From a virus: DNA of 64,000 bases. A model generated the notes under the pieces. The model was not told the origin of the DNA, ran no database searches, and worked only from the letters and a program-made list of their open reading frames with translations. Of the stretch, positions 11,941-55,277 are shown in pieces. The DNA lies in the IMG/VR virus record IMGVR_UViG_3300027733_000030, positions 64,001-128,000 of that record; one strand, written 5' to 3'. The translations under genes were made by a program, and so were the position numbers. Position 1 is the stretch's first letter, and every line of letters begins with the position of its first letter.

Positions 11941-14100
11941 TTAAAATATTGTTCCAGACATCCACTCTTGTATATGTGGAGCAGATTTAGATGTGGCACC
12001 GTTGTTCGGATTAGCAAAGTATTTTGTTACCCAAGCTTTTAAGTTATCTTCTGTTTTATTAGTATTTCTAGTATAGACCGCTACGGCATCAGACCATTTA
12101 ACTCCTGTAATTGGACCATATGCTGGTCCGCCATCATAGTCTCCCCAAGCAGTTAGCACGTGCTGCATCTCGGGATTAGAACCAAGTTTTTGATCAGCTG
12201 GAAGTGGATACACTGGATCTCTTCCTGTCATTGTTTTGAATGCCATAAAAGCTTGATTAATTGGTATCCACAATCTATCATCAGTTGAATTTCTCGTATT
12301 AGTTTTATATTCTGCAGTAGCCTCATTGGCCTCAGATACACTTATATCTCTAGCAAAACCTTTCCATTGACTAAATGAACTAAGGTTAAAGTATTGCCAT
12401 CCTGATGCAGCCAGTTTCCAACCTTCGATGGGAGTTACAGTTGGCAGGGGGCTGAGGAAAGAATAGTGCCCATATGATAGCAGGTTAAGCTGAAGGAAGC
12501 CAAATGAATAGTCTCCAGATCTACGAATGGTAGGAGTCCAAGAACCAACATTACCTTCTCTTTGTGAAATTGCAGTAAGTACTGCTGCCAATTCTGGATA
12601 AGCTATAGTTCCTGTAAGAAGTTGGAAAATTTCATCAGCGGTTAATTCTCCAGTCCCAGCTGCTTTATAACTTTTTGTAAATTTAGAATCAAGAATATTT
12701 CCTGGAATTGTAACTCCTGCTGGAACATAAAATAATCCTGAAGCTGGATTTCCCGAAGTTGTGGCGGGTGGCGCTATAGGGCCAGTAGTAAAAGCTCCTC
12801 CTGGTCCAGTATAGATTCCAGCTCTTGCTGCACTAAAACTTATATGGATATGATTTCTGTGCTTTGCATCGGGATGGAATTTTATATATTTTAAATTTGG
12901 ATACTTTAATTTTACTGCTGCATCGTCTGCATCGTGGCCTACTCTTACGCCATACTCAGCTGCCAACTCGGGCATGTGCACTATAATATCGGGCATGATA
13001 TGGATAGGTAGTGTGCTTAGTGCCGTCATTAGCACATCCATTGCTTTTCTATATATCTCTACATTTCCAGCATTATCCCATGGGGAGTATTTTTCTCCAT
13101 TTAAGTCACCAGTGAAGTAAATATCGTAAGCCCTACCAAATCCATGATCTGATAAAGATCCATCTTCTTTTGTTCCGGCCTGCATTTCTTCCCGCCATCT
13201 ACCGGTTCCAAAACCACCACCAATTTGTATCTTTGCAGCTAGCGCAATTAGACACTCAATTAGAGCTGGAGATACGTAGGCAAGTTGATTAGGGGCTTTA
13301 ACTATATCAATGGGAACATCTTTTATATTTGTTGCTGGATCTATGTTAGGGAATTCAGATATTCCATCGCCTGCGTAAGATTGTGTAAAGCTATCATTAA
13401 TGTCAAAATAAAATCCACCAGTTAAATTGCTCCAGTCATCGACTACTCCTAAATCTTTTAATACTTTTCCTCTTTCAAGAATCCATACCTTTTCCTCAGC
13501 GGAGACCCTGCTAGTTATAGCAACCATTCTTGCTCCTGCTGTAGGATTACTAGAGTCTGGATTATAGGGCGTGTCACCGTGATCTGCTGGTGAATCTGAA
13601 TTTGCTGGAGAATTAGCAAAAGAATAGTCTTCCATAATAGAATCTGCCGCACCTTGAACAAAACCAGAACCACCTTGTTTTGCAGCTATGCTGTCAGCTA
13701 GAATTCTCGTAAAGGCTGCTCCGCCTGATATTGTAGTAGGCTTTGATGCATCGCCATCAGTGTATGCTGTACTTTCAGGGTTAACAATTGTCACTTTCGC
13801 GGTTGAATTAAATGTTGATTCTGAACCCGCGGTAATTAAAGAATTTAAAGAACTTCCAATAGACTTATTATAAAATGTAGTAGCAAATTTTGGCGATCTA
13901 TATAATATATCTCCAGATATAGCTTCGGATATAGTCCTGCTAGTAAGAGTTTTTCCAGTTACACCGCTTTTGCCAAAAGAAGTATTTTCAACAACAATTT
14001 TTCCATTTGGATATTTTGTACTTTTTGGATAATAGCTATCAAAAATAGCATTTGTTATTGACTGAGAATTTGATATTTGTTCACTATTTATGTCTACCAT
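11941..14100 (-). CDS. Virion-associated peptidoglycan hydrolase: M15/LAS-type Zn peptidase plus lysozyme-like (SLT) domain
   Basis: SDHGFGRAYDI and HRNHIHISF form the H-x6-D / H-x-H LAS zinc motif. AISQREG...GDYSFGFLQLNL is a transglycosylase catalytic Glu plus G-x-x-Q motif. Confidence 0.8.
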   Translation of the reverse strand: MVDINSEQISNSQSITNAIFDSYYPKSTKYPNGKIVVENTSFGKSGVTGKTLTSRTISEAISGDILYRSPKFATTFYNKSIGSSLNSLITAGSESTFNSTAKVTIVNPESTAYTDGDASKPTTISGGAAFTRILADSIAAKQGGSGFVQGAADSIMEDYSFANSPANSDSPADHGDTPYNPDSSNPTAGARMVAITSRVSAEEKVWILERGKVLKDLGVVDDWSNLTGGFYFDINDSFTQSYAGDGISEFPNIDPATNIKDVPIDIVKAPNQLAYVSPALIECLIALAAKIQIGGGFGTGRWREEMQAGTKEDGSLSDHGFGRAYDIYFTGDLNGEKYSPWDNAGNVEIYRKAMDVLMTALSTLPIHIMPDIIVHMPELAAEYGVRVGHDADDAAVKLKYPNLKYIKFHPDAKHRNHIHISFSAARAGIYTGPGGAFTTGPIAPPATTSGNPASGLFYVPAGVTIPGNILDSKFTKSYKAAGTGELTADEIFQLLTGTIAYPELAAVLTAISQREGNVGSWTPTIRRSGDYSFGFLQLNLLSYGHYSFLSPLPTVTPIEGWKLAASGWQYFNLSSFSQWKGFARDISVSEANEATAEYKTNTRNSTDDRLWIPINQAFMAFKTMTGRDPVYPLPADQKLGSNPEMQHVLTAWGDYDGGPAYGPITGVKWSDAVAVYTRNTNKTEDNLKAWVTKYFANPNNGATSKSAPHIQEWMSGTIF

Positions 14101-25554: not shown

Positions 25555-28500
25555 TTAATAGTTGGCTGCCATTTCTTTGTATGGATCATGAGCCACATCG
25601 GGGATTCTATTATACATAGTAGTACTCATATTGCCATTAACCAACCCTCCGGCAGCAGCATTAAATCTTCTTACGGTGTCTTGATCTCCATATAGGTTTA
25701 CTTTATAGCTAACCCCTGAATCATAACCGGGACCACTAAAGGTTCCTATTTGTGGTACTCTATTTGGGTAACCACTCTCGTATGCCGAACCGCCAGGAAG
25801 TAAAGGGGGACCAGTCATATCATCATGTGTTCTATCTCTAATCGCTGTATAGGCTAAGCTGCCTGCTATTAAAGCTCCAATTGCTAAGGTACCTTTTCTA
25901 ATAGTCGGATTTTTAAAGAGATCTTTAAGATCTCCCATTTTTTCCCCTATTCTCTTATATACAGCCTTATTCTTTACGAGTCCATCATCTAATTCACGAA
26001 CAGACCTAATCATATCATCCGTTAGACCATGATCATCTCCGAATTCTCGTATAGCATCTTCCATGTTGGCAATGGTGCCGTTTTTCATTTCCGTATCTAT
26101 AAATCCACTATCTTCTAATTCTCTCTTCTTCATTTGAGCTCTTATTACGGCAGCTTGGTGGTTTGCATCTTTTCTGACCATTTCATCAGCAATTTGTTCA
26201 GACTCATTTGTTAAAGCCCTAAGAGTATCAGTATGTTCGTGGCTTGCAGCTATTACATCAAACATATTTTTTGATCCATTATCCACTCTTTTTTGAGCTT
26301 CATTAATAGCTTTTAATCTTTTTTCAGCTTCTTGAGTAAGTTCTTCCATAGTAGTTTTATTGCCCAAGCTACCTTGAACTTCATTAGCATAGTCTTGATG
26401 AAAACCTTCATAAAATTTTGCTCTTCTATAATCTCTTACTCGTTGAATCTGTGATGCTGTTTGTTGAGCTTCATCTGACATTGTTGAATCGTATGCTGAA
26501 CTTAAGTGCCTAAGGCCACCGATATCTACCCTGGAACCTACTCCGCGGGTTTGTTTATCTATAGAGTTTACAAGATCTGCCATGTTAACATTTTCAAGTT
26601 TTGATGCTTGACCAATGTCACGTAATACTTTTTCTCCAACACTATCCAACATAGCTGCGTGGTTATGTTTTTCGAGTTCAGTCATCTCCTTAAGATGATT
26701 ATTTGTAACATTAAAAATTTGTTCTAAAGAATCTTTATGAGTTTCAAGAATTTTTCGCGCAACTGATTCAGCTTCAGCGGATGTTGAAGTTGAAGCTAGA
26801 ATGTCATCTGCGCCAATACGAGATATTGAAGCCCTTCTTACTGAATCTAAATACGCTTCATATCTAGTTCCTACGTCATGTATTTTTGAAATAGATGAAT
26901 ATTTATGATCGGCGCCTAGACCAATTTTTTCTATTAAAGCTTTTTTTATTTTATCTTCATCATTAGTAGCAGAAAGGGCTTTTAGTTCTTCTATAAGTTT
27001 ATCTAAATCAACTGTTGTTGCGTGTTGATTCCTTTGTGCGTCTTGCATGCCTGTAATCATATTATCTAGAATTAATTTAGTATCACTACCTTTAACTCTT
27101 TCCCTTAATAAGAATTCATCTATACCTAAAAGATTTTCTTGATCCCCCCCCACTGCTCTAGAATAACCAATCATTTTGCCAAGGTTAGCCATACTTTTTT
27201 CTCCAAAAATATCAAGAGTAATACCTTTGTCCCCAGCGCCAGCAAGTCCCAGTTCTCCTAATGCTTTTTGAATGCCTTGATCTTTATAAAATATAGCATC
27301 TGTTTTAGATAACATTTCCCCAACTGCCCCATGCAGTTTTCTTGTTCCAGCAAAGTTTACAGAAAGGTCAATTGCTGTTTCCTGTGATAGCATTCCTATT
27401 TTATAATTTTGAAGCATGTAGTCTTGGACTTTTTTATCTGCGCCCTTTAAAAAAGCTTCATATTGATTTAATGATGAACCTACGGCCATAGATCTGTTCA
27501 CATATAGACCAAGTATATCTCCACCCTCTATTGCCTTTTTCATACCGACTTGTTCAAATGCAGATGCAAAAGCTGCCCTTAATGTAGGATCTTTTTCAAA
27601 TCCGTTAACTTCCATTAAATGCATCATGTGTTCAAATTGACTTAATTGTCTTTGTTTTCCTTCAACAAAATAAGTGCCTGCTTTAGCAGTTTCTAATTGC
27701 TTTAAAACTGCTGGATTAACGTTATTCTGCTTCATTACATCCAACAGGTCACTTCCCATATCAAAAGCGCCAGATTTAGTAAATGCTTTGAATACACCAT
27801 TCCTTGTATATGCTGGTTCTACACCTATATCCGCAACTGTTAAAGCCGAAGATCCATATTTAGCTATTCTTGCTTGCATATCTGGAGTTAGTCTTTGAAG
27901 TTTTGTTTTTCCGGTCTGTTCAAGTCTTTGATATACATCATAAATTCCTTGTTCAAAATAATCTGCAGAAAGTGGTTTTTCAACTACTTTTCCTTTTTTG
28001 ATTTCTGTATGTGTTTTATCTAATACTTCTTGCAAATAAGTATATGTTCTTCTTTTTTGGGCATTAAGTGATGTGTCGGCTGCTAGTTCGTCTAGCGCAT
28101 TTCTAAAATGTCTTACTGCAAATACATCTTCTCCGCCACCAAACAAACCTCTAATAGTTTCTTGATCCATATTCATTCGAGCAAAAATTAATTCTTCAGG
28201 ACCTGATGGTTGACGGAAAATTGAAAATCCTAAACGATTCATTCCCGCATTATCTTGATACGTCAATAGCTTAGGTAGACCTTTGTCGTCTAAGTCAAAT
28301 CCACCAAGTGCATGTCTATAAGGTCCAATGGCATCAGCCGAAAACATCATCTTGTGGCCACTAACTCTGAATTTTAGGATATCATGATCGATATCTCCTA
28401 CTCCAGCCATAGATATTCTGTCATAACCTCTGCCTTTATTGAGTAACATTTTTCCTTCTTTTGTTCCCAAAACTCCAGCTTCACTGTCAATAGCAAACCG

Positions 28501-30372
28501 GTGAGTTTCTGGCAAAACAGATTGAACAAAATTGCCCTTTGTTCGGAATGCTTCAGTTGCAAAGAATGTATGAAGCATATTCATCATTGTTGGATTTTGA
28601 TTAGGACTGACTCCGCTTTGCATCATTTCTATAATTGCATTAGCAAATTCCCTATTTCTAGCTGCAGACCCGCGTGCGTAAGAGGGAAGATGTTCTATAT
28701 TTCTTTCTGCAGCTTGTTCTAACATAGCTTTTACCCTTTTGGGAACTGTACCACTATTAATGGCCCCCTCAAATTCTTGCAGTACAGTTTGAGATCTTTT
28801 TTCCATAGCTTCTATTGTATTAACATCAGCAAAAACTTCTGGGTGGAATGCTGCTGAAACCGGATCCGCATAAACAGCTTCTCTACCAGCGCCCATACCG
28901 CTTAAGTTAAGAATATTAGTTTTACCCGCAAAACCTAATTCGCCCTTAAATCCCATTTTACTAACAATCATTGAATATTTATTTAATTCTTTACCTTCAA
29001 ATTCTGTAACATTAAAAGCAGTTTTGATATCCCCGTACTCCAAGGCGTGACCTCGGCCAGTAACCTGTTCTAATCCACCCTTACTGCCAGCCCTTTTTAC
29101 TTGTCTCTCAATATTTCTTACTTGTTTTAATTCTATTGATAATGCTTCTTTTGCTTCCGCTGTTAAAGTTTTATCTGTTTTTAATTGTTTTTCTATTTGA
29201 TTTGCCCTCACGCCCATAGTTTTTACATAATTATTTAAATATTTGGCATTCAATAAGTCAGACCCGTCATACGCATACTCAATATTATCAAACATGTCTT
29301 TAACAATTTTTTTTCTAGTAGCGTCACCATTGACAAAATGTTTGTCTAGATGTTTCATTAATTGATCACTAGCAAATCTATTGCCAACTTTTCCTGTTGC
29401 ATCATAAGAAAAATTACCCGATTTAATTACCCTCATGAGTTCAACTCTATCGGTTTTATTTAAATTCTTCATTACATTGCCAATAAAATCTTCTGGATCA
29501 GCTTTAGCGTAATATGATCGTAAAGCTTTGGCTTTCGTTGTTTTGCCGCCAAAATCATAAGCTCCACCTAATTCTTTGTGAGCCATTTTTTTCAAAAGTT
29601 CATATTGAGGATCAAGAACTAGCATGGATTGACCAAATTCTGGAGAAGTTTTTTTTATAAAGCTTGCTAAATCGCCTCCTGCTAAAGAAATTTCTCTTTC
29701 AGATGCTAAAGATCTGAATCTTTTTCCAATCTTCATTAATTTATCTGCTAGTTTTGTAGAATCAGCTCCTGCCATTATTTTTCCAAATGTTTCCGGATCT
29801 AACATATCGTGTCCAGTAACTGATAATAATAAATTAGATTGATAACTACTCAGCATTTTGTTTCCAACTCGCATATTGATAACTCGTGCACCTTCGTCAT
29901 CCATGATGGTAATTCCATGCAGGGCGCCACGTTCTCTTAGCGTTTTAATTCTATTAGCAATAGCTTTAGTGCCGCCCTTTTCTGCATGCATTGTGAGAAG
30001 ATCTACTTGCATATCTTTTATCATACTCACGTCAATGCCTGCATTCTGCAGGGTTTGGATTTCGCCAGCGTTAAAACCTTTAGATCTATTTCTAATGTCT
30101 TGCATGATTTGAGCCATACCACTAACCTTATTTCCTAATTTAGGCGTAGTTAATGGATTGACCTGAGTAACGTGCAGAGCTGCTGCAGCGTTAAATGCTC
30201 TTTCAACGCTAGTAAAATTTTCACCAGTGGCGGTTAAAACATATTTAACTTTATCACCATCTGGTTCTATTTTTATGACACCACCCATTCCATAGGTAGT
30301 TCTCATTAATGCTGATCTTCCAGCTGCCATTCTTTCTGGCAGCGTCTGATACATTTTATTAATATTTACCAT
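25555..30372 (-). CDS. Large virion protein (1605 aa); candidate single-chain two-barrel (DPBB) RNA polymerase
   Basis: The CDS itself is clear and its start overlaps the tape-measure stop. Function is inferred from MMFS...P....LGGFDLDD (28282-28305), FRQP (28207-28218) and IVSKMGFKG (28942-28968). Confidence refers to the RNAP call. Confidence 0.5.
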   Translation of the reverse strand: MVNINKMYQTLPERMAAGRSALMRTTYGMGGVIKIEPDGDKVKYVLTATGENFTSVERAFNAAAALHVTQVNPLTTPKLGNKVSGMAQIMQDIRNRSKGFNAGEIQTLQNAGIDVSMIKDMQVDLLTMHAEKGGTKAIANRIKTLRERGALHGITIMDDEGARVINMRVGNKMLSSYQSNLLLSVTGHDMLDPETFGKIMAGADSTKLADKLMKIGKRFRSLASEREISLAGGDLASFIKKTSPEFGQSMLVLDPQYELLKKMAHKELGGAYDFGGKTTKAKALRSYYAKADPEDFIGNVMKNLNKTDRVELMRVIKSGNFSYDATGKVGNRFASDQLMKHLDKHFVNGDATRKKIVKDMFDNIEYAYDGSDLLNAKYLNNYVKTMGVRANQIEKQLKTDKTLTAEAKEALSIELKQVRNIERQVKRAGSKGGLEQVTGRGHALEYGDIKTAFNVTEFEGKELNKYSMIVSKMGFKGELGFAGKTNILNLSGMGAGREAVYADPVSAAFHPEVFADVNTIEAMEKRSQTVLQEFEGAINSGTVPKRVKAMLEQAAERNIEHLPSYARGSAARNREFANAIIEMMQSGVSPNQNPTMMNMLHTFFATEAFRTKGNFVQSVLPETHRFAIDSEAGVLGTKEGKMLLNKGRGYDRISMAGVGDIDHDILKFRVSGHKMMFSADAIGPYRHALGGFDLDDKGLPKLLTYQDNAGMNRLGFSIFRQPSGPEELIFARMNMDQETIRGLFGGGEDVFAVRHFRNALDELAADTSLNAQKRRTYTYLQEVLDKTHTEIKKGKVVEKPLSADYFEQGIYDVYQRLEQTGKTKLQRLTPDMQARIAKYGSSALTVADIGVEPAYTRNGVFKAFTKSGAFDMGSDLLDVMKQNNVNPAVLKQLETAKAGTYFVEGKQRQLSQFEHMMHLMEVNGFEKDPTLRAAFASAFEQVGMKKAIEGGDILGLYVNRSMAVGSSLNQYEAFLKGADKKVQDYMLQNYKIGMLSQETAIDLSVNFAGTRKLHGAVGEMLSKTDAIFYKDQGIQKALGELGLAGAGDKGITLDIFGEKSMANLGKMIGYSRAVGGDQENLLGIDEFLLRERVKGSDTKLILDNMITGMQDAQRNQHATTVDLDKLIEELKALSATNDEDKIKKALIEKIGLGADHKYSSISKIHDVGTRYEAYLDSVRRASISRIGADDILASTSTSAEAESVARKILETHKDSLEQIFNVTNNHLKEMTELEKHNHAAMLDSVGEKVLRDIGQASKLENVNMADLVNSIDKQTRGVGSRVDIGGLRHLSSAYDSTMSDEAQQTASQIQRVRDYRRAKFYEGFHQDYANEVQGSLGNKTTMEELTQEAEKRLKAINEAQKRVDNGSKNMFDVIAASHEHTDTLRALTNESEQIADEMVRKDANHQAAVIRAQMKKRELEDSGFIDTEMKNGTIANMEDAIREFGDDHGLTDDMIRSVRELDDGLVKNKAVYKRIGEKMGDLKDLFKNPTIRKGTLAIGALIAGSLAYTAIRDRTHDDMTGPPLLPGGSAYESGYPNRVPQIGTFSGPGYDSGVSYKVNLYGDQDTVRRFNAAAGGLVNGNMSTTMYNRIPDVAHDPYKEMAANY

Positions 30373-33300
30373 TATCTAATCCCTGCTGAAACATCAATAC
30401 TTTGTGAACCAAAAGGATTTATGACTGGAGTAACACTTCCAGAAAATCCAGAACCATTCATTAATCCACGTAACTTATATAGCGTGTCTTGTCTGTCTCC
30501 ACTTTTTCCAAATTGAGGAAAGCTTGGATTAGCTAAATTAGCTTCACGGATCTGTTGAGGATAGTAACCCATCTGAGACATTTCTAGACCCATTGATTCT
30601 CCCGTTTTAATTTTAACTTGATCCATATTTGTATTTGGATGCCAACCTTCCCACGATAAATCGGGAAGTTCATGGCGGGTAAAGTATTCGCCTAAATCTG
30701 GTTTTTTCTCAACATCCATGCCCCAGGATGCCTCATAAATTCTTCTTTCAAGTCGCCCAGCAGTTGAGAGTATTTTACCTCTTTCTGCTTCTGGAGCATT
30801 AATCATTGCTTTAAAGTGTTCCCTTTTTCTTTTAGGTATAGATAGAGATAGTGTATCTAAATCTTTTCCGTAAAGATCAGCTCCATACATTGTTCTTTTT
30901 GCAGCCATATTATATTGCATTGCTGCTTTTCCGTCACCAGAAGCTTTAGCCATAGTCTCTAATCTTTTACTCTTTACATAACTTAAAATGTCAGAATATT
31001 CATCAAGAGCCAATTCTTTTTTTCTCTTCATTGGGATGAATCTGTCACCAGTTACAAGTTCTGATGTTTTTCCGTATGCAGACGCTGCTAGTCCAGTAGT
31101 TACTCCAACTGCTGTTCCCAGTAATTTAGCTTTTGCCGTTCTTCCGAATAAAGATCCAGCTACACCTAATGCGCTGGCTGCGGCTATTGGATTTCTTTGT
31201 GTAGACTTATTGATCATTGGCTTAATATAACTTTCAAATGGTCTTTGCCATTCTGGGAATGTTGCGCCATAAACATTTTTTCTTTCCCAGTCTTCAGTAG
31301 CCGTTCTTTTTCCAATAGCCTTACTTAATACAAAGTTATCTGAGTGAGCTAAATATTCTCCCATTCTTCCTGCACCAAATTTCAATGGATGTTGCCCCAT
31401 TGCTTCAGCAGATGATCCTTTATATTTATAATCTGTAAATTCATTTTTAGTTGTCATACTTTGAACTTGAGATCTTATGTCTGCTACTTGATTTCTTTCA
31501 GCTGGACCCAAATTCATTTTGTCCATTTTTTTGTCTAATATTTTATACTGTTGCGAATACGGTGCAACATCACCTAATATTTTTAGTTGATCTAACATCC
31601 CATATTGCCCAGTGGAGTCTGGATGAAGTCTATTGAATCTTTCATAGCCTACTCCTGGTAATCTTAATTCACCTTCTTGTACTTTCGTAAAAGGATCCCC
31701 TCTAGTGAAATCTGTAAAATATTCAGATCCAGGAAGAAAAGGATACTTTTCACCCATAGTATTTTTAATTGGGTTTAAATAGTCAATGTTAGTTCTTTCT
31801 TTCGGAATAAATCGCCTAACAATTTCCGAAAATTCAAAGTTGCCAACTCCCTCTTTATTTCCCAGTGGTGCATCTCCTAGTCCACCAAGATTAAGATCCC
31901 AGAATGCCCTAGTTGTTCCGTACGCTTTGGATGCTGACTGCAGAACGGATCTTTGTGGTTGGAAATCTGCTTGTCCAAACCCTAATTTCTTTCTTGCATT
32001 AGCGAATGCAAATCCATAAATACCTGCCATTTCCTGCATTCTAAATCCAGCTTCTCCAGCTTGAAAAGAAGTAGCACTAGGCTCCAATGGAGCTCCCGCA
32101 GCGACTATTCTTGGAGGCATGACTTTAGACATCTTTGGTGGTCCATAAGATAAATTAGCATATTGCGAGTTAACATCTTTAATTGAAGATCTAACCATGG
32201 CCCCAGCTGCACCAGTACTTCCTGCCCTACTAGCTAGCATGGAGTTAGTGGAATATACGCCTGCAGCGCCCCCAATCGCACCAGGTGTAGGTGCACCACC
32301 CCCTGTCATTTCAAAGCCACCAGGAGCTCCTCCGCGCGCGCTTGTGCCCATGCCAGCAGTGAATCCCACTCCATTTACATAACTAGGAGTTTGTGCGTAT
32401 GCTGAGGCATCGTATGCGCCCGACTGTCCAGCTCTGACATAATTAGATAGCCCTTGTGCTGTTTCATTCTCATGCATTAATACTTGCGGTTTTAGGACTT
32501 TTCCAATAGTCATATTTGCCAGTGGCACTAGTGGGCCAAATGGACCAGAGAAATATTCTCCAGTAACAGGATACGGCCTATCATCATGGTGTTTACGTTC
32601 AAATCTATACGGATCTAAAGGTCTTAGCGGTGAAATATCATTGTAGAACAAAAACTTTTCTGCCGGACTACCGTAAGTATCACTTGTAAACATGGCTCCT
32701 GCTTGAAGTTTACGGTACCATGAAGGCCTATAGTATTGAATCTTTCCACCTTTAAATGGAGTATTACCAAGTGGCCACCATCTACCCTGTCTGATTGGAA
32801 CTTCGCCTTCAGTTAATTGCTTTTTCTTATCCTCATAACTCATTCCACCTGGAGCTATTCCAGCAGATAGCGATTGAAGTTCGACTGCACCTTTTGCAAC
32901 CTGCCCAAGAACTAATGGAGAATATATTCTTTCTCCTCTTTCGTCTTTACCCTTGGTCATTCCGCCTAATGTTCTGTCTACCGTTAGGGCAGTGACTCCT
33001 GCTGCGTATAGTGGCAATACTCGTTTTCCGACCATACCTCTGGCAAATAGATCTAAGGGTCCTTTAAAGTCTGAAACATTTAATTGACCACCCAAAGTAC
33101 CAAAGTATCTATTTAATCTTTCAACACCTTGTGAGATAGGAACGCTTCCTAAGGAATAGCTTTGTGGATCAGAATATGTTGTTAGACCTACCGCACTTTT
33201 TATTGCTCCCATTGGATCTCTGCCAAAGACAGTCCCAAATGTGGGTACTACTGTAACGCTTTGTCCGGAACCCAACGCATCAACAGCTAGGTCATCAACA

Positions 33301-36300
33301 ACATGCCCGGCTGTTCCAAAAGCTTTTTTGCCCGCTGAGAATAATGGAGAGAATTTTTTACGAATACCACTACTAATTTGATTTATTTCACCCTTAGAGA
33401 AAGGATCAAAGGTTTTTTTTAAGCTTGCGTTTTTGCTAGAAATGCTAAACATTTCTGCTGCGCCTGCTCGAGCATTTTGTATGTTAGTAGCTGAGTGTTG
33501 GAATGTTTTAAACGCACTAATGTTAAACATGCTTGAAAGTGCTGCAGCTTGTGCCTCAACTCTTTGAGATGCGCTAATTACTCCACTCTTGACTAGTTTA
33601 TCAACAGCTGTCTGCATTTCGATAAAAATATCTGCAGAGCTTCCTCCGCCTAATTGCATCTGATTAGTCTGTGAAACATATCTGAATATTTCATTTTTTA
33701 ATTCGTCTAATCTAGTTGTAATCGTCGGAGACTTTTCAGCCATTTGAGACATTGAATTAAGATTAGTCTCTTGCATTAAACGTTGGATTCTTGATGAAGA
33801 TGTGCTTAAGAAAGTTGGATCTATTCCTTTTGCCCTTAATTGTTGAGCGGTTAAGTTTTGTGCTGCTAATAAATCTTCTGCAAATTTAGTTGCTTCCGTA
33901 CCAGATTGAATTGCACTAACTTTTCTTCCACCAAATGTAAACAAATCAGGTCTACTAGTTTCAAGTTCTTTAACTACTTCGCTAGGAGTTCCATATTGAA
34001 AAGCCTGTTTACGTAAAGATTGATACCCTCTTAAAATATCTGCTTCGGCAAAATCATCTACCGCATTCCCCAAATTATCAAATACACCAAGTTCACCGTT
34101 CTTGCCAGTAGATAATTTTAATATTTTTTCTTTTCCGCCAGAATTATATTTAACATCTTCACCAGATAATAGTCGAGACATAACACCATTGTTATTTAAA
34201 TCTGTTGAACGACCTTTAAATCTAGAAGCTAAATTAAACATAGAGTTTGGCTGCTCTGAGTCAATACTCATTTTTCTTTTAAAGCGTATTGCTCTTTCTC
34301 CGCCAAGAATTCTGTCTAAGAATTTTGAACCACTTGAATCTCTAATTTCATTAATAGTTTCGCCCTGCATGTTTGCTGCGTAGCGAGTATGTCTAGTTAA
34401 TAAGTCTGTAGTATTAGTTGGAATAGCTCTATAGGTTCCATTCATTACTGAACTATGCACTGCGTCAGATAAATTATCTGTCTGGAAAGACATTAACTTA
34501 CCCTTGGTTCCCTTAGTCTTGAACCACATATGGAAGTCTGCCTTACTCTGAGCTCCTTCCGGCATGAATGGCTGCACTGTTCTAGACGATACGTACTGCA
34601 GTGGTGATCGATTTGCCATCTCTGCAAATGATCTATAGCCAAATAAATCAGCTGGGTTGAATCCCAATATTGGAATTTTGAATTCTGATGCAAAGAAGTT
34701 TGCTGTTTTAGAGAAGGTTGACTTAACGGAGGTAAAGTCTAATATTTGACCCGATCTACTTTTGTATACTCCGTCAAGTTTACTGAATCCAATAGATTTA
34801 GATACTGGGTCGTTAATAGCCATTCGTGAAGCTAAGTCATGAATGACTTTCTGTTCCTCTGGTCTCATATGCGAGAATCGACCAGATTGACGAGCTTCGT
34901 CAATTGTTAAGGATTTTAATCCAAATAAGTTGTATCCACCACCAATGACACCAGAGGTCATTTGTCGGTTTTTAATTAAGAAACCTCTTAAATCAGTAAA
35001 TGCGTTAGGATCAAAACCACGATTCTTTAGTGCGCCAGTAACTACATCATTAGATACTTGGCGTCCGGCGTCGTCCGTTAATTTAATGCCTAGGGTCTGG
35101 GCTGTTTTTCTTTGTAGGAATTCTGTTTTAGCTGCGGTTTGTGGGCCAGTAAAATCATGATAAGACGCCTTCATAGGCTTCAGAATTCCACCACTAACTG
35201 TAGTTAAATCATCTCTATAAAATTTATTCCAATTTTTTTGGACCTTATTATTTAGACCTTTTTGAAATTCTTTAGAAGAGAATATATCTCTAGCATCTTC
35301 TACGGAAGCTCGAAGAGCATCTGGTTTAATTGCATCTTCAAAAGTTTTTCCACCAGAAATTCCACGATATCTTTTAATTATTTTTGCAAAGAAATCGTCA
35401 CTTAGATTCGCTGCGTCTGCGCCATCTTCATATATTCTAGTTTTACCAATTGTTATAATATTGGTACTATCCATATTTGCTTTTGGCATTCTGACTTTCA
35501 AATAGTCAGTAAATTGTTTGGCTTCCTTACCTTCTAACCCTCGTGAAATTAATTGATTTTCTAAAAGATCTTTAAAGGCATCGCGTTGATGACCATAGCC
35601 AAATTGAGATCTAGTAACAGCTCCATCACCAGGTCCTCCGCCACCCATGATTCTAACTCCTGTTGCAAGGTTTGATAGCCTACTGGAGTGCTGCGACTGG
35701 ATCCTCTCCATTGCCCCTTTAAGGGACTGTGCAGCGTCTGGAGTTCCACCCATAGCCTTTAATACGTTAGCGTGTGCTATTGAATTTTCTAGGGCATCAT
35801 AGCCTTGACCTAAAAGTGTAAATTCAGATTTACCTGCCTTAAAAGCTTCGGTCAATCCTCTAGTTCCAGGCATAAGGTCAAATACACTTTTTCCAGTGTT
35901 ATTCTTAAAAAGAGCTTTGAATCCCGCATTTTTGATTTGCGACCTAGATGCCCCTTGAGCAACAGCAGCTTCTTTGGCTTGTGTTACTCCATGTCTTAGA
36001 CTATAAAGGTTTTGTACAAAACCTTGTTGATTATCATAGGCTCTTGTAGCGGAACTTAAGGCTCCAGATGTTTGTGCCGAAGTCCTAAGGAATTTATTTG
36101 TTAGCGTTGCAAAGTCATGCCCTACGTCTGCTAAAGTTTCAGTTATATCAACAAAGCCTTTACTTAATTTTTTGTTGAATGGAGTGAGATTGCGCATATC
36201 ATTCATTGAATAGCGAAGACTATTTAATGAACTACTACTAGCAGATCCGGCAGCGCCTACAGCTTCAAATGGGGCAATCATTGTTGCCATCATAGTTAAA

Positions 36301-36992
36301 GATGATTTAGTAAAATCACTAATAACGTCTGCTGGGTTATACCATTTTACTTTTCTTTTTCCTTCTTCGCGATTACCAAAAATTGGATCAACAATTGCTT
36401 TTTGTGCACCGTACATTGCTGGAAGTTCATACGGCATTCTACGACCTGCGCGCACTAATCTTTGTTGCAATTCGTCCTTATAGGCCCATACTGCTGTAGG
36501 CTCACTTAAGAAGCCAGATCCTGCAAGATTTTTTTCTTCCTTAGTTAAATATTGGTAGCCAAATCTTTCGCTAATTTTTCCATCGTAACCAGTACTTAGT
36601 TTGCCAGATTTATCAAAAGCTACTAATTTGCCATATAAATCTTCACCACTATCAACAAACCTACTAACACCTTGGAGCTCGTCTAAATGACGACGAATTT
36701 GAGTTGCACTTTCCACTATTCGAGTTGCTAGTGGGTGACCTGCTTCTGAGGAAGTTTGCAGGAATTTTCCTAGTTTTAATCCGCCTTCTCTAGTTAACTT
36801 GGAGGCGACTGTAGCTGCCACCATAACTGTAGCAGTCGAGGCAAGAAACCTCATAATTGGGTGACCGTTTAGGGCGCGACTGACCATGCCGGAGTTTGGG
36901 GCTACGCCGTCAGATTCCCCTTCACCTACAGGAATATCTCTAGATGTTACGCCGTATCCTAAGTTTTGTATTGGTCCTGGATCGCGTATCAA
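30372..36992 (-). CDS. Tape measure protein (probable), 2206 aa
   Basis: First large gene after the tail chaperones. Ala/Gly/Lys-rich helical composition; hydrophobic amphipathic stretches (FLASTATVMVAATVA; AASALGVAGSLFG...LLGTAVGVTTGLAASA). TTG start with TAAGGAG RBS. Confidence 0.7.
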   Translation of the reverse strand: MIRDPGPIQNLGYGVTSRDIPVGEGESDGVAPNSGMVSRALNGHPIMRFLASTATVMVAATVASKLTREGGLKLGKFLQTSSEAGHPLATRIVESATQIRRHLDELQGVSRFVDSGEDLYGKLVAFDKSGKLSTGYDGKISERFGYQYLTKEEKNLAGSGFLSEPTAVWAYKDELQQRLVRAGRRMPYELPAMYGAQKAIVDPIFGNREEGKRKVKWYNPADVISDFTKSSLTMMATMIAPFEAVGAAGSASSSSLNSLRYSMNDMRNLTPFNKKLSKGFVDITETLADVGHDFATLTNKFLRTSAQTSGALSSATRAYDNQQGFVQNLYSLRHGVTQAKEAAVAQGASRSQIKNAGFKALFKNNTGKSVFDLMPGTRGLTEAFKAGKSEFTLLGQGYDALENSIAHANVLKAMGGTPDAAQSLKGAMERIQSQHSSRLSNLATGVRIMGGGGPGDGAVTRSQFGYGHQRDAFKDLLENQLISRGLEGKEAKQFTDYLKVRMPKANMDSTNIITIGKTRIYEDGADAANLSDDFFAKIIKRYRGISGGKTFEDAIKPDALRASVEDARDIFSSKEFQKGLNNKVQKNWNKFYRDDLTTVSGGILKPMKASYHDFTGPQTAAKTEFLQRKTAQTLGIKLTDDAGRQVSNDVVTGALKNRGFDPNAFTDLRGFLIKNRQMTSGVIGGGYNLFGLKSLTIDEARQSGRFSHMRPEEQKVIHDLASRMAINDPVSKSIGFSKLDGVYKSRSGQILDFTSVKSTFSKTANFFASEFKIPILGFNPADLFGYRSFAEMANRSPLQYVSSRTVQPFMPEGAQSKADFHMWFKTKGTKGKLMSFQTDNLSDAVHSSVMNGTYRAIPTNTTDLLTRHTRYAANMQGETINEIRDSSGSKFLDRILGGERAIRFKRKMSIDSEQPNSMFNLASRFKGRSTDLNNNGVMSRLLSGEDVKYNSGGKEKILKLSTGKNGELGVFDNLGNAVDDFAEADILRGYQSLRKQAFQYGTPSEVVKELETSRPDLFTFGGRKVSAIQSGTEATKFAEDLLAAQNLTAQQLRAKGIDPTFLSTSSSRIQRLMQETNLNSMSQMAEKSPTITTRLDELKNEIFRYVSQTNQMQLGGGSSADIFIEMQTAVDKLVKSGVISASQRVEAQAAALSSMFNISAFKTFQHSATNIQNARAGAAEMFSISSKNASLKKTFDPFSKGEINQISSGIRKKFSPLFSAGKKAFGTAGHVVDDLAVDALGSGQSVTVVPTFGTVFGRDPMGAIKSAVGLTTYSDPQSYSLGSVPISQGVERLNRYFGTLGGQLNVSDFKGPLDLFARGMVGKRVLPLYAAGVTALTVDRTLGGMTKGKDERGERIYSPLVLGQVAKGAVELQSLSAGIAPGGMSYEDKKKQLTEGEVPIRQGRWWPLGNTPFKGGKIQYYRPSWYRKLQAGAMFTSDTYGSPAEKFLFYNDISPLRPLDPYRFERKHHDDRPYPVTGEYFSGPFGPLVPLANMTIGKVLKPQVLMHENETAQGLSNYVRAGQSGAYDASAYAQTPSYVNGVGFTAGMGTSARGGAPGGFEMTGGGAPTPGAIGGAAGVYSTNSMLASRAGSTGAAGAMVRSSIKDVNSQYANLSYGPPKMSKVMPPRIVAAGAPLEPSATSFQAGEAGFRMQEMAGIYGFAFANARKKLGFGQADFQPQRSVLQSASKAYGTTRAFWDLNLGGLGDAPLGNKEGVGNFEFSEIVRRFIPKERTNIDYLNPIKNTMGEKYPFLPGSEYFTDFTRGDPFTKVQEGELRLPGVGYERFNRLHPDSTGQYGMLDQLKILGDVAPYSQQYKILDKKMDKMNLGPAERNQVADIRSQVQSMTTKNEFTDYKYKGSSAEAMGQHPLKFGAGRMGEYLAHSDNFVLSKAIGKRTATEDWERKNVYGATFPEWQRPFESYIKPMINKSTQRNPIAAASALGVAGSLFGRTAKAKLLGTAVGVTTGLAASAYGKTSELVTGDRFIPMKRKKELALDEYSDILSYVKSKRLETMAKASGDGKAAMQYNMAAKRTMYGADLYGKDLDTLSLSIPKRKREHFKAMINAPEAERGKILSTAGRLERRIYEASWGMDVEKKPDLGEYFTRHELPDLSWEGWHPNTNMDQVKIKTGESMGLEMSQMGYYPQQIREANLANPSFPQFGKSGDRQDTLYKLRGLMNGSGFSGSVTPVINPFGSQSIDVSAGIR

Positions 36993-38255: not shown

Positions 38256-39227
38256 CTAAAAGCTCCAACTTGTATTCGGATCACGTAGTACTTGATCAAA
38301 AGTGCGTGAATCTGGATTAGCATTAGATGGTGCGTCAGAATCTGAAGTATTATTGGCGGACATACCTTTCATGAAACCCAGATCTGCTTCTGTAAAATAA
38401 TAATCTCTAGCTATGAATTGATAACTCTCAGCGACTGGTTGACCACCTGGACTATAGTTAGTTGACATATTCATTAAGTTGACTTGCTGAAGAATTATTT
38501 TCATAGGACTGACCCTATTGTCTACTCTAATACTTCTTTGATTAACATCAAAAGACATTTGATTATTTAAATAACTAGAAGTACTTGAATCTTCCGATGT
38601 ATTAGCACTGAAAGGGCTTAAAGCAGTTTCCTCTAATCCATAGAGAATTACGAAGTTAAATGGTGGATGGGCACTAAAGATACTCTTAGTATCAGCTGCT
38701 GAATCAGCTTTTGCTGGGTCCGAAGTAATCCTATCTAATTGACTGTAGGACCAATATTTTTCTATATTTTTTTCATCTTCTGATGAAAGTTGCGAATCTA
38801 ATCTTGAAATAATTGAATCTTTAGGAGTTCTGACATCTTTATTCATAACCCTAGACTTTGCAGCCTTTTCTAGCATTTCTGTCATTCTACGTGGATATCT
38901 AGTAAAAATAGTTATTTCACCACTAATTATTCTTGTACCTAACATCACCGTATCATAATTATATGACCAAAATCCGTATACCGGTTGCTTCTCTTGTCTT
39001 ACTGAGTAAGCAAATGAAGCTATATCTAATTCATCTTCCGGACCGAAAAGACCATCGATGTATACCTTTACATCTTCGCCACTAAAATAATAGTCATAAT
39101 AATTATTAAAAGTTTTATCATTATCGGGCGCGCTTCCTGCCCAAACTCTATCTATTTGATCAGATAGAGGATCATATTGCTTATCAAATTTCCAAAATTT
39201 TTTATTATCTAACCTTGGCTCTGGCAT
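38256..39227 (-). CDS. Tail tube-like protein, paralogue 3 (minor; tube initiator-like)
   Basis: YFSGEDVK...SFAYSVRQEKQPVYGF...GTRIISGEITIFT...HPPFNFVI...ESYQFIARD follows the tube fold pattern shared with the two upstream genes. Confidence 0.7.
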   Translation of the reverse strand: MPEPRLDNKKFWKFDKQYDPLSDQIDRVWAGSAPDNDKTFNNYYDYYFSGEDVKVYIDGLFGPEDELDIASFAYSVRQEKQPVYGFWSYNYDTVMLGTRIISGEITIFTRYPRRMTEMLEKAAKSRVMNKDVRTPKDSIISRLDSQLSSEDEKNIEKYWSYSQLDRITSDPAKADSAADTKSIFSAHPPFNFVILYGLEETALSPFSANTSEDSSTSSYLNNQMSFDVNQRSIRVDNRVSPMKIILQQVNLMNMSTNYSPGGQPVAESYQFIARDYYFTEADLGFMKGMSANNTSDSDAPSNANPDSRTFDQVLRDPNTSWSF

Positions 39228-39233
39228 TATTAC

Positions 39234-39971
39234 CTACTGTCTAACAATATGTTCTATCATATTTTGATTATAAAATTCTGCTAGTTTGTCAGTGGCTTCA
39301 TCGCCAAAGATATTTCTAGATATTTGTACATCTCGCTGAACTACTTCTGGACTTCTGGTTGAATCTGTTTCGGATCCAATATCCATTTTAACCATTGGTT
39401 GAATACCACGAGCCATATAAGTATACGTCTGCTCTGTGATTAAGTCATCAATAGATATTGTTTGACCTTCATCTACAATAGTAATACCAAATATTTTCAT
39501 TTTGGCAGATTGTCCATACTCATTGAAGAATGAAATAACAATATCAAAAGGAGGCAACATGTCTGCTAATGGAGCAAAAAAACCATTTCTTCTTCCTAGT
39601 AGTTCTCTATATTTTTTAATTTTATAAAATGCATATTCGTTAAATACAGTAAAGATTAAACTTCCAGCTATTGTTCTTCCGCCCTTAATAAAACCCCTGG
39701 CATTAACATGGCCAAGAGTTCTAACGGGTGAATTTTCCCTATGTATTGAATATGATAACGTCTGTAGTTCTCCTAATTCAATTATATCGCCTTCATTGGT
39801 AATTCTTCCATCTTCACCTATAACAGGAATGATCATAGTTGCTACTGCATCCGCTCCTGAAAATGATATATTTTGAAGAGAGGCATTTGGATCATATGTT
39901 CCGCGAGGACCTTGATCTTCTGTCGGTTCAATAATTGCTTTTGGTTTACCAGTATAAATTTGAGTAGTCAT
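39234..39971 (-). CDS. Tail tube-like protein, paralogue 2
   Basis: SFSGADAVA...LQTLSYSIHRENSPVRTLG...GGRTIAGSLIFTVF...LPPFDIVI...EQTYTYMARG. Confidence 0.8.
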   Translation of the reverse strand: MTTQIYTGKPKAIIEPTEDQGPRGTYDPNASLQNISFSGADAVATMIIPVIGEDGRITNEGDIIELGELQTLSYSIHRENSPVRTLGHVNARGFIKGGRTIAGSLIFTVFNEYAFYKIKKYRELLGRRNGFFAPLADMLPPFDIVISFFNEYGQSAKMKIFGITIVDEGQTISIDDLITEQTYTYMARGIQPMVKMDIGSETDSTRSPEVVQRDVQISRNIFGDEATDKLAEFYNQNMIEHIVRQ

Positions 39972-39985
39972 TATTCCCTGTCCTT

Positions 39986-40023
39986 AAAATGAAATGTGCA
40001 CGGAGGAAGATCCCCCGTGCACA
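39986..40023 (-). terminator. Rho-independent terminator after the major tube gene
   Basis: Minus strand TGTGCACGGGGGA-TCT-TCCTCCGTGCACA (13-bp stem including a G-U pair) followed by TTTCATTTT. Confidence 0.8.
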
Positions 40024-40047
40024 CCTGTCAACCTAGAGTATTTATTA

Positions 40048-40725
40048 TCAGGGTCTGATAATATCTGACTTAAGAGCATTTGACTGAATAAAGTCAAGAG
40101 CATCGGCGTCAGCGTTGTCAATAAGACCGTCTGTTTTGATTGTGTACATAGGACCGAGTTCACGAGCAACATAAGTCATCGTTTCTTCAATGACGATGTC
40201 ATCCATCGAGGCGCCTGAACCTTCATTCAAAAGTTCAACACCGTAGATTGATCTAACGGCAGCTTGGCCATACTCATTCACAAATGTGATAGTAATATCA
40301 AAGGGAGGAATCTGGTCAGCGTAGTAAGGAACTTTCTTTACAACACTGAGAGCCTGATCATTGACATCAGCTATTCCGCGATACTTGTAAGCTGTATCGC
40401 CAGGAAGCGCATTATGACTTCTTGTGTAGAAGACCTGTGTTGGGTCACCATTTGCACGGTTCTTGTCCAACATTGTATACAATGCGGGGCGATCAAAAAC
40501 TGTGAAAATCAATGAGCCTGCAATACCTCTTTTTCCTCTTGAGAATGAACGAGGATTAGGTGAACCCATTGTGTAAATGGGAGCTTTTTCTCTAGTGACA
40601 GAGAAAGTAATGCCCGAAAGAGCACCAATTTCAATTCCACCAAAAGTGGCTACAATGTCTGCACCTGAGAAGGTGGTGTAGGTATTTAGGTATTTATTTA
40701 CTGATGTATAATCTTCAGTTGCCAT
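40048..40725 (-). CDS. Major tail tube protein (probable)
   Basis: Directly follows sheath. TFSGADIVA...LSGITFSVTREKAPIYTMG...GKRGIAGSLIFTVF...IPPFDITI...EETMTYVARE. Codon usage resembles capsid and sheath; followed by a terminator. Confidence 0.85.
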   Translation of the reverse strand: MATEDYTSVNKYLNTYTTFSGADIVATFGGIEIGALSGITFSVTREKAPIYTMGSPNPRSFSRGKRGIAGSLIFTVFDRPALYTMLDKNRANGDPTQVFYTRSHNALPGDTAYKYRGIADVNDQALSVVKKVPYYADQIPPFDITITFVNEYGQAAVRSIYGVELLNEGSGASMDDIVIEETMTYVARELGPMYTIKTDGLIDNADADALDFIQSNALKSDIIRP

Positions 40726-40750: not shown

Positions 40751-42022
40751 TTATAAATTAATGGCTACCTGGACTTCGATTGTTTTAAGTTCGAAGGCAG
40801 GTGTTAAAATGAGGTCAACAATCGCTTTATTCTGATTGGGAACATACGAAACTGTAAAATCGCTTCCCAATAAAGCACCCATGAGCTGCATTCCTCTTAA
40901 ACCGGAAGTAATTGCTGTTTCCATCGCATTGCGAACTTGAATGTTCGATGGCTCACCAATAAACTTCTGGCAAACTTGTCTAATGACAAGAGAAGCTTCG
41001 TCAACAATTCTCTTTGTTGACAAACGCGTGTAGTCTGATGTTGTCTGACCGAATGTCAAACCTTCACCAAAAACTGCTACTTTATTAAAGTTAAGAACAA
41101 CAGTATTGACACCCTTTGTGCTCAAAGCTTGCTGCTGAGTTCTTGTTGGGGCATAGCGAAGAGCTTCGACATTATAAAGTGGCTTATTGACCACTGAACT
41201 ATACGAAGGAAGTCTACTCAACGAAGCTGCCAAGAAGGCTGCGCCATTTGAATAGCCAAAATCTGTTGTTCCCGACTTATAGTTAACTGGCTTAATTTCA
41301 GTAGCAACGATAGAAATATATGGTCCGACTGACTTCCAGGCATCGCCTGCATCTCTGTCTGGCAATCCAGTCAAGGACAACTTAGTTGCCGTTTGGCTCG
41401 GAGTCATTCTTTCATAGGTGGCAGTTCCGCCAAGAGTTGTACTGGCCAAGAAGGGCTTAACGCCCATAATTCCCAGACAAGGGTTAGTATTCTCTGAGAT
41501 TGTCTTAACTGCAACGCCAACTTTGTAGGCCCAGTTTGTTGCATAGGCGCTATTGTTATCTGCATGGAAGCCATATTCTCTGTCATCACTGGGTGTGGCA
41601 GCGTTTGCATTCCAGTCATTGGCTTCTGAGCCACGACCCCAAGGGATAATCATGTCTGGGACTGCTGATTCTGCTGCGACAAAGGCTGCATCAAAAACAG
41701 ATCCACCAAAGGTTGCACTTGTTACTGTGCACAGTGTGTGATTAAATACTGTATCACTTGGGAGCGGGACAATGAAAATTCTTTCAGCGCCAGCAGTGAC
41801 CAGTTCGAGGAATGAGCGGTGTGCGTCTGATCCGCTACCGAATGCGGTAATTGCGTCAGCTTCGTTTGACACTCTAACTACGTCAAGGTCGGGAACTCCA
41901 CCAGTGCCGTCAGCGGTGCTGCGCTTCGCAATAGTTACAATTCTTGGACCAACAGGTGCGTCTTGTCTCGACACACTGTAAAAACGATCTCTTATTAAGG
42001 TTGTTACTCCAGGTATAGCCAT
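40751..42022 (-). CDS. Tail sheath protein
   Basis: MAIPGVTTLIRD start; C-terminal sheath domain (QQQALSTKGVNTV...DYTRLSTKRIVDE...FIGEP...PAFELKTIEVQV). Confidence 0.92.
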   Translation of the reverse strand: MAIPGVTTLIRDRFYSVSRQDAPVGPRIVTIAKRSTADGTGGVPDLDVVRVSNEADAITAFGSGSDAHRSFLELVTAGAERIFIVPLPSDTVFNHTLCTVTSATFGGSVFDAAFVAAESAVPDMIIPWGRGSEANDWNANAATPSDDREYGFHADNNSAYATNWAYKVGVAVKTISENTNPCLGIMGVKPFLASTTLGGTATYERMTPSQTATKLSLTGLPDRDAGDAWKSVGPYISIVATEIKPVNYKSGTTDFGYSNGAAFLAASLSRLPSYSSVVNKPLYNVEALRYAPTRTQQQALSTKGVNTVVLNFNKVAVFGEGLTFGQTTSDYTRLSTKRIVDEASLVIRQVCQKFIGEPSNIQVRNAMETAITSGLRGMQLMGALLGSDFTVSYVPNQNKAIVDLILTPAFELKTIEVQVAINL

Positions 42023-54989: not shown

Positions 54990-55277
54990 TTATTTTTTTT
55001 CTTCCTCTGATACTACGGTAGTAGTTTCTTTCACTTTCATGACTGGCTTGTCTTGCACGGGCGCGGGAGCAGGTGTGGGCGAAGAATCTTCTTGAGTAGA
55101 TAAAGTTTCTTCAAGTTCGGTGATTCTATCAATTAACTGAGTAATAATATCAAAAATTACTTCAAGGGCTAGTCTAGTTTGGCCATTATCTACAACTTTT
55201 CCTAGACCTTTGACAGCGTCTTCCGTTCCTAGATATTCTGATATTTTGTCATTCTTTATTGTCATTTTCTTCGACAT
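54990..55277 (-). CDS. Hypothetical protein (95 aa; short coiled coil, Pro-rich tail)
   Basis: Intact ORF between portal and GT; overlaps portal 3' end by 29 nt (alternative start MTIKND). Confidence 0.6.
   Translation of the reverse strand: MSKKMTIKNDKISEYLGTEDAVKGLGKVVDNGQTRLALEVIFDIITQLIDRITELEETLSTQEDSSPTPAPAPVQDKPVMKVKETTTVVSEEEKK

Follow-up and report, generated by a model that had tools for sequence, protein, structure and literature searches.

What does a long gene that matches no known protein family by sequence encode in the tail module of a large uncultured phage, and when in the infection would its product act? This question is raised by a stretch of viral DNA of 64,000 nucleotides (nt), i.e. 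positions 64,001 to 128,000 of the IMG/VR record IMGVR_UViG_3300027733_000030, which is referred to as the window in the following and whose record is a 126-kb virus fragment. According to the list of open reading frames (ORFs) and their translations, the minus-strand ORF at 25555-30372 encodes a protein of 1605 amino acids (aa), P0001. A first-pass annotation had proposed that P0001 is a virion-packaged two-barrel RNA polymerase (RNAP) with a circularly permuted catalytic barrel, encoded by a gene that is coupled to the tape measure gene. Here, we argue with moderate confidence for one explanation as a whole: P0001 would be a single-chain two-barrel RNAP that is encoded in a tail operon and delivered via the tail, accompanied by a paralogue that is not part of the virion.

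Conserved residues of the putative active site

A metal loop of the NADFDGD type, i.e. DxDxD, and an R-x-P element upstream of it, the Pro-gate, are regarded as nearly universal marks of two-barrel enzymes, from bacteria to the eukaryotic RNA-dependent RNA polymerases (RdRPs). P0001 departs from both. Its metal loop reads D-L-D-D, i.e. the third Asp is located one position earlier than in DxDxD and the Asp at the fifth position is absent. Moreover, the place where the Pro-gate is canonically found, between the third and fourth strands of the catalytic barrel and 35-45 residues before the Asp loop, is empty; instead, an invariant R-Q-P is located 24 residues downstream of the last Asp, where the second strand of a hairpin ends. 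The motifs quoted in the first-pass annotation are all found in P0001 (at residues 667-702, 715-733, 436-441, 447-453 and 468-478), with D693, D695, D696, R720, K472 and K476 numbered correctly, and the interval it had highlighted, 28180-29070, covers residues 435-731.

A word-based search yielded 116 homologues of P0001 at 23-98% identity, almost all of them metagenomic and on contigs of up to 209 kb, and an exhaustive HMMER search with a profile of 906 positions yielded 216 representatives (clusters at 50% identity) with E ≤ 1e-3, 199 of them with E ≤ 1e-10. All 116 sequences contain L689-G-G-F-D-L-D-D as well as R720, P722 and E727, while Q721 is present in 115 and K697 in 114. Further positions that are invariant or nearly so in this set are D369-G370, Q436, R440, D503, R625, E631, R669, G955, N959, R960 and D1002. 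The pattern GGxDxDD occurs in 212 of 252 family sequences, and the 19 full-length-class sequences lacking it that were inspected all read GTFDLDD or SGFDQDD. Every member that spans the site (231/231) has DxDD followed by RxP 21-32 residues downstream, with the length changes falling at the tip of the intervening hairpin. Between R625 and D693 the 116-sequence alignment contains no conserved basic-x-Pro, the stretch being variable and gappy; R652 (in RISMAGVGDI) was considered as a degenerate canonical Pro-gate and rejected, as the residue is not conserved. Judged from these alignments, motif conservation is far beyond chance, and both departures, DxDD and an RxP after the Asp loop, are real, family-wide and unlike every described member, in agreement with what the first-pass annotation had read from a single sequence. 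Its pair of lysines in the second barrel (barrel B) has to be revised: K476 is conserved (114/116), whereas K472 is variable (Lys in 39 and Arg in 34 of the 116), and K450 (111/116) is the true partner of K476 in the conserved basic pair.

One may suspect that P0001 serves the tail in structure or ejection and that its polymerase-derived core is an inactive relic. This idea could draw on a DxDD that is not canonical, on the lack of a Pro-gate at its canonical position, on large insertions and a long C-terminal extension, and on weak tape-measure-like feature leads. Relics, however, lose catalytic residues. In P0001 all acidic and basic positions of the active-site type are invariant down to ~22% identity, and the same set of residues recurs in an independent family of stand-alone paralogues (see below). 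We therefore regard a relic as highly improbable and, by analogy with known enzymes, consider P0001 to be probably an active polymerase.

Predicted fold and the stand-alone paralogues

An AlphaFold2 model of residues 340-1120, based on 88 aligned sequences, has a predicted local distance difference test score (pLDDT) of 84.5 and a predicted template modelling score (pTM) of 0.84. QDE-1 chains top the Foldseek list of this model against the PDB, at weak E-values, and QDE-1 was the sole chain with Z ≥ 8 (Z 8.2, 356 aligned) in a Foldseek-independent search of 48,161 PDB representatives. In a second structural look the first seven chains were all cellular RdRPs. The model aligns to QDE-1 with Z 8.7 (367 aligned; model 19-748, chain 700-1148) and to Arabidopsis RDR2 with Z 7.1 (332 aligned), QDE-1 and plant RDR2 being its only extended PDB matches. 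Among the predicted viral structures in BFVD, uncultured Caudovirales supply the best matches, all of them uncharacterised (E 7e-9 to 3e-7, probability 1.0); proteins of crAss-like phages, one of them annotated 'putative RNA polymerase', match weakly (E 0.003-0.16). A shape search of the ESM Atlas with the 781-residue model returned only histidine-kinase rows with low template modelling scores, which were taken as noise.

The strong scores come from a second family. The IMG/VR relative G001 carries on the same contig both a P0001 homologue, at ~70-75 kb, and, at syntenic distance, an 808-aa ORF at 131.4-133.8 kb, P0142. This protein contains the motifs VDGATF, QFR...GEIKGN, K259/E261, GGPDLDD, an RNP 24 residues further on that is followed by E, and E601...D605, and its family of 119 homologues retains the same invariant set. 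Aligning both families by hhalign gave 342 colinear columns (E 3e-4) that reach from the DG motif as far as RxP..E, with the barrel B columns of P0001 paired with the DG, QxR, IKG and K-x-E motifs of the paralogue; P0142 alone gives an alignment (E 0.0016) that is free of gaps in the 61 columns surrounding the Asp loop. Additionally, the intermediates P0388 and P0361 match both P0001 and P0142 in BLASTP, and P0246, a member of the P0142 family (UniRef A0A6J5M9G6), is the top BFVD match of the P0001 model (E 6.7e-9, prob 1.0).

The model of the P0142 core (residues 170-650, pLDDT 85) matches maize RDR2 (Z 12.4), Arabidopsis RDR2 (Z 11.8) and QDE-1 (Z 11.4), followed by the gp64-type non-virion RNAP of the P23-45 phage group (gp64/gp62; Z 9.5 and 9.3) and by P23-45 gp96 (Z 6.5-6.7); the next unrelated chain scores Z 5.3, and gp66 of phage phi14:2 Z 4.6-4.7. 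Nearly all of its top 50 Foldseek matches are RdRPs, bacterial β' chains or gp64. Isolated double-psi β-barrels, i.e. VCP N-domains, the designed DPBB_sym and formylmethanofuran dehydrogenase subunit D, align to the first 105 residues of the model at Z ~4, and in this model these residues are barrel B. Thus, because of its homology to the paralogue family and its own best matches, P0001 is, as far as predicted structures tell, very likely a homologue of two-barrel polymerases, and for the superfamily of both families this assignment is strong. The two-barrel fold expected by the first-pass annotation is thereby supported, by QDE-1 and RDR2 for both models and by gp64 and gp96 for the paralogue.

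Within the P0142 family, K428-M-P of P0142 was considered as a canonical Pro-gate and rejected, as it is not conserved. Longer members of the family (P0244-P0258, 1100-1400 aa) contain extra regions with weak matches to SLOG-type domains such as DNA_processg_A and YAcAr, which 11-12 of 52 members show at E ~0.003-0.005, and one member bears a NADAR domain (E 6e-24).

Arrangement of the catalytic barrel

A double-psi barrel, be it canonical or cyclically permuted, is built in the order β-β-α-β twice and has three and three strands between its helices. In both AlphaFold models, the order of elements in the catalytic barrel (barrel A) as given by DSSP is strand-helix-strand-strand-helix-DxDD-strand-strand-RxP-strand, i.e. 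two and four strands lie between the helices. The two long strands after DxDD are joined by a 5-residue turn, and a regular hairpin of this kind would set the Arg opposite the second residue past the last Asp, i.e. beside the metal loop. In the P0142 model, residues 250-265 form only a short helix-and-loop between the first long strand and the hairpin preceding the Asp loop, and therefore the canonical third strand has no space there. The models are read most simply if the strand bearing the Pro-gate has been replaced by the strand that follows the Asp-loop strand, so that the RxP loop would have been relocated via a hairpin appended after the Asp-loop strand instead of the barrel being permuted.

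The first-pass annotation had explained the same order by a literal circular permutation of the catalytic barrel. This would account for an RxP after the Asp loop in two paralogous families, whereas we verified the canonical order in gp96 (RNP 38 residues before DFDGD) and gp64 (RRP 38 residues before DYDGD), and the local text FRQPS does resemble the canonical strand-RxP element. A permutant would, however, need a strand-strand-helix-strand half at this place, but only a single strand is found between the Asp-loop strand and RxP, with helices following after the next strand. Moreover, the helices are two and four strands apart in both models, not three and three, and the stretch 250-265 of P0142 suggests that an upstream strand is missing, not that a half-barrel has moved. 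Permutation is thus quite unlikely, and this part of the annotation is not upheld; we prefer the relocated loop.

Comparison with well-studied enzymes may help to assign the other conserved residues. QDE-1 uses Q736, R738, K743 and K767 in barrel 1, the Pro-gate R962-S-P964 and D1007/D1009/D1011 in barrel 2, N1087/R1091 in the bridge helix and D1116 in the trigger loop (PMC9508822). Q436, R440, K450 and K476 of P0001 appear to mirror the barrel 1 residues, whose order and approximate spacing they share, and D369-G370 would correspond to the DG motif that opens barrel B. By analogy with N1087/R1091 of QDE-1 the helix 953-977 is a bridge-helix candidate, the motif E998-D1002, which recurs in the paralogue as E601...D605, may be trigger-loop-like, and the connector 481-608 seems to be placed like the clamp connector of other single-chain RNAPs (PMC10770324).

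QDE-1 and RDR2 are the best structural matches of both models, and they share with P0001 the order of the barrel B motifs, i.e. DG, Q-x-R, K-G and a second Lys (VDG...QFR...GEIKG in the paralogue). They differ in having DxDGD instead of DxDD, and the Pfam RdRP profile to which they belong (PF05183) is matched neither by P0001 nor by P0142 or 52 members of the paralogue family at E ≤ 1. In QDE-1, Pol II and E. coli β' the R-x-P precedes the Asp loop (PMC9508822), unlike in P0001, which also differs from the cellular RdRPs in being a tail-module protein of a phage with a candidate C-terminal anchor. With the multisubunit enzymes (β'/Rpb1, NADFDGD) P0001 shares a hairpin-helix-acidic loop-strand arrangement and the presence of an Arg-x-Pro element, but it is a single chain, its third Asp is shifted by one residue and its Arg-x-Pro follows the acidic loop. 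The virion-delivered RNAP gp66 (PDB 6VR4) of phi14:2, a crAss-like phage, is a single-chain two-barrel enzyme as well, but its match is far weaker than those of RDR2, QDE-1 and gp64, and it belongs to the head or the cargo, its phage being podovirus-like and its gene not part of a tail operon. Full-text literature searches returned the P23-45 work and general papers on two-barrel enzymes; in none of them was a DxDD loop or a Pro-gate downstream of it described for an RNAP, and no paper on the P0001 family was found. Hence, while two-barrel RNAPs as a kind are already known, the variant with DxDD and a downstream RxP appears, on its sequence features, to be new.

The altered loops might instead reflect a changed substrate, in which case P0001 could be a PolD-like DNA polymerase, an RdRP or a primase-like enzyme. 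The cellular RdRPs are the best structural matches, and QDE-1 accepts DNA as well as RNA as template; the ribose 2'-OH is normally sensed by the Arg of the Pro-gate (PMC9508822), and DxDD combined with a relocated Pro-gate is unique. Yet the invariant Arg-x-Pro fits ribonucleotide selection, the phage has a double-stranded DNA genome, its closest phage precedents, gp96 and gp64, are DNA-dependent RNAPs, and neither an exonuclease nor a PolD-type accessory domain was found in P0001 in Pfam and NCBIfam scans. We consider another specificity very unlikely and retain the assignment as an RNAP.

Genomic context and possible delivery

The window is taken up by the structural genes of a large tailed phage, all those listed being on the minus strand, and the P0001 gene is located between the sheath and tube genes and the baseplate J gene (Table 1). 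A relative in IMG/VR at 60% identity has 134 kb and is rated 63% complete, from which a genome of ~200 kb follows; the source is thus an uncultured, contractile-tailed phage of roughly this size. The stop codon of the preceding gene, P0141, overlaps the ATG of P0001 by one base (TAATG at 30374->30370, minus strand). This 1-nt overlap recurs in relatives, and the order P0141-P0001 is retained even in distant ones. P0141 has no match in Pfam, PHROG or NCBIfam and thus none to a family profile of tape measure proteins; its position after the sheath, a tube-like set and two small ORFs fits a tape measure, and there are weak language-model feature leads (0.82-0.84) to tape measure clusters. The coupling stated in the first-pass annotation is hence real as an overlap with P0141, whereas 'tape measure' is a weak label that is based on position and these feature leads only.

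Outside the polymerase core, P0001 has a C-terminal region whose residues 1100-1490 likewise give weak language-model leads (0.81-0.83) to tape measure clusters, and a single hydrophobic segment, residues 1493-1512, which is, by its sequence, a candidate membrane or anchor helix. The end domain, residues 1513-1605, is kept in relatives of 2028-2104 aa and, at 53% identity, at the C-terminus of the second gene of a split form. This split form is found in the relative L013 (a 213.5-kb JGI contig), where the gene is broken at about residue 764 into a 748-aa gene and, after a gap of ~100 nt, a 772-aa gene that holds the bridge-helix-like motif and the conserved C-terminus; the gap, 12248-12350, contains no obvious ORF. 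Other natural forms comprise ~985 aa (residues 1-976), 1329 aa (residues 292-1605, the start at 292 being given by BLASTP of the short forms) and a compact 832 aa (core only, P0367). No fused P0141-polymerase form was seen among the best 150 of the 216 representatives, none of which is longer than ~2100 aa.

To our knowledge, tail-delivered RNAPs have been demonstrated so far only in the group of Thermus phage P23-45. There, the virion RNAP, gp96, forms the N-terminal part of a fusion with the tape measure protein and gp64 is the non-virion RNAP, a scheme that has been shown experimentally (PMC10770324). We liken P0001 to this scheme because of the parallel of a single-chain two-barrel RNAP in the tail module and a compact paralogue that stands alone at another place in the genome, as in the relative G001. 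As in gp96, transmembrane or extension regions are C-terminal to the polymerase core. In contrast to gp96, P0001 is encoded by a separate gene with its own ATG downstream of the ORF in tape measure position and is not an N-terminal domain of the tape measure protein; its phage is contractile-tailed with ~200 kb, whereas P23-45 is a siphovirus; and it has DxDD with RxP 24 residues after it instead of DFDGD or DYDGD with RxP 38 residues before.

On this basis we propose the following course of events. P0001 would be produced late and, by means of its C-terminal part, be built into the tail together with P0141; at infection it would be ejected. In its core (residues ~364-1005), D369, Q436, R440, K450 and K476 of barrel B would hold the RNA 3' end and the phosphates of the incoming nucleoside triphosphate; past the helical connector, the DxDD of barrel A (D693, D695, D696) would serve as metal loop, the β-hairpin following the Asp-loop strand would return the R720-Q-P722 loop to its side, and the helix with N959/R960 together with E998/D1002 would complete the core. 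The enzyme would then transcribe the genes at the leading end of the genome that enter first, including one or two stand-alone paralogues of ~800 aa, which would subsequently assume early transcription. In another relative the paralogue gene lies among many small ORFs near recA, which suggests that it is placed as early genes are. Delivery within the virion is, by analogy with gp96, rather likely.

A polymerase that is active but not packaged might instead be encoded here, either with a late role inside the cell, e.g. in late transcription, or with a position in the tail operon that has nothing to do with delivery. Compact versions of ~830 aa with the core but without the C-terminal extension exist (P0367), and the stand-alone paralogue demonstrates that this type of enzyme works as a free protein, too. 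However, the gene lies between the ORF in tape measure position and the hub and baseplate genes, is translationally coupled and is syntenic in distant relatives, the conserved hydrophobic segment and end domain would be needless in a soluble transcriptase, and a separate, non-structural paralogue is already present. An unpackaged enzyme is thus unlikely, and we favour tail delivery.

Several observations count against our interpretation. Packaging is deduced from gene position only. As DxDD replaces DxDxD and the canonical Pro-gate position is empty, the chemistry could differ or be lost, and the barrel topology as well as the proximity of the Asp loop to RQP were read solely from the order of DSSP elements. 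The Z of 8.7 of P0001 itself is barely above the background of 7-8 stated for the tool, the strong scores being carried by the paralogue. At the level of sequence, Pfam, PHROGs, NCBIfam and the PDB sequence search do not link P0001 to RNAP families: scans of P0001, P0142 and their neighbours, including PADLOC, gave nothing relevant, and phmmer and profile searches of PDB sequences with P0001 gave noise only. The P0001 family has no detectable profile similarity to gp96 or gp64, as hhalign against the single sequences of P23-45 gp96 (1-1200) and gp64 found nothing. In tblastn of P0001 or P0142 against 50,697 phage records there was no match and hence no cultured relative. Finally, tblastn with the P0001 core and P0142 as queries did not reveal the paralogue in the 126-kb record of the window, which is explained by the record being a fragment; a weak 44-residue match at G000 10048-10179 is outside any ORF of at least 150 aa and was dismissed as chance.

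What makes the family worth studying is that a large natural group of proteins retains the fold and yet spells the metal loop differently and takes its Arg-x-Pro from another strand. The family thus lends itself as a natural test case for the question which features of the active site are truly required and in what ways a double-psi barrel may be rebuilt. If the explanation is true, tail-delivered RNAPs become a recurrent strategy that reaches abundant uncultured large myoviruses with a virion/non-virion pair, and a clade of at least 216 clusters (50% identity) of ~200-kb contractile-tailed phages uses rewired RNAPs. We tentatively suggest, as a possibility that falls somewhat short of an expectation, that a large phage clade has two-barrel RNAPs rewired in this way (DxDD, and the RxP strand moved after the Asp loop), that they represent the first case in which the catalytic barrel of an RNAP varies in topology, and that one paralogue is mounted in the tail and injected for a start that is independent of the host polymerase. 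Annotation based on profiles misses enzymes of the P0001 and P0142 type entirely.

Table 1. Segments of P0001 and neighbouring genes, in the order in which the minus strand is read
Feature	P0001 residues	Position in window	Strand	Basis or remark
Portal		55249-56922	minus	
Protease/scaffold-like ORF, 688 aa		52069-54135	minus	between portal and capsid
Major capsid protein		50177-51235	minus	
Fibre-like protein			minus	listed between major capsid and tail sheath
Tail sheath		40751-42022	minus	
Three tandem paralogues, then two small ORFs		38256-40725 (paralogues)	minus	
P0141, 2206-aa ORF in tape-measure position		30372-36992	minus	ORF list
N-terminal region	1-340	29353-30372	minus	moderately conserved; absent in some family members
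Barrel B (double-psi β-barrel) region, with D369-G370, helical hairpin insertion 376-430, Q436, R440, K450, K476	364-480	28933-29283	minus	conservation, DSSP, hhalign
Helical connector between barrels	481-608	28549-28932	minus	DSSP, model helices 165-270
Catalytic barrel A region	609-735	28168-28548	minus	DSSP; conserved P621, R625, E631, F668, R669
Candidate metal loop	L689-G-G-F-D693-L-D695-D696-K697	28282-28308	minus	conservation
Arg-x-Pro loop	R720-Q721-P722-S-G-P-E-E727	28192-28215	minus	conservation
Variable insertion	765-950	27523-28080	minus	low conservation, many gaps
25-residue helix with invariant G955, N959, R960	953-977	27442-27516	minus	DSSP, H614-638
Acidic motif E-x-x-[IV]-D	E998-T-A-I-D1002	27367-27381	minus	conservation
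C-terminal region outside polymerase core	1100-1490	25903-27075	minus	beyond modelled range
Single hydrophobic segment	1493-1512	25837-25896	minus	Kyte-Doolittle scan
Conserved C-terminal domain (GPPLLPGGSAYE...SYKVNLYG...)	1513-1605	25558-25836	minus	conservation
147-aa ORF downstream of P0001		25099-25542	minus	syntenic; 147-151 aa in relatives
3662-aa ORF, two genes downstream of P0001		14102-25090	minus	
Baseplate-J protein		9355-10524	minus	

Some neighbours deserve a remark. The 147-aa ORF has no family match in the Pfam, PHROG and NCBIfam scans, and the 3662-aa ORF, whose counterparts at the same position in relatives have 3523-3788 aa, has no Pfam match. The three tandem ORFs directly downstream of the sheath gene (323, 245 and 225 aa) match phrog_9206, 'major head protein' (best E 1.5e-51), a label that may be misleading, as by position these ORFs resemble paralogues of a tail-tube protein. 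Residues 351-494 of the 688-aa ORF match phrog_3636, 'DNA binding protein' (E 2e-23), and a 2054-aa ORF after the baseplate-J gene (3178-9342, minus strand) shows, at residues 964-985, a sub-threshold match (E 1e-5) to domain I of the tail sheath protein Gp18 (PF22639).

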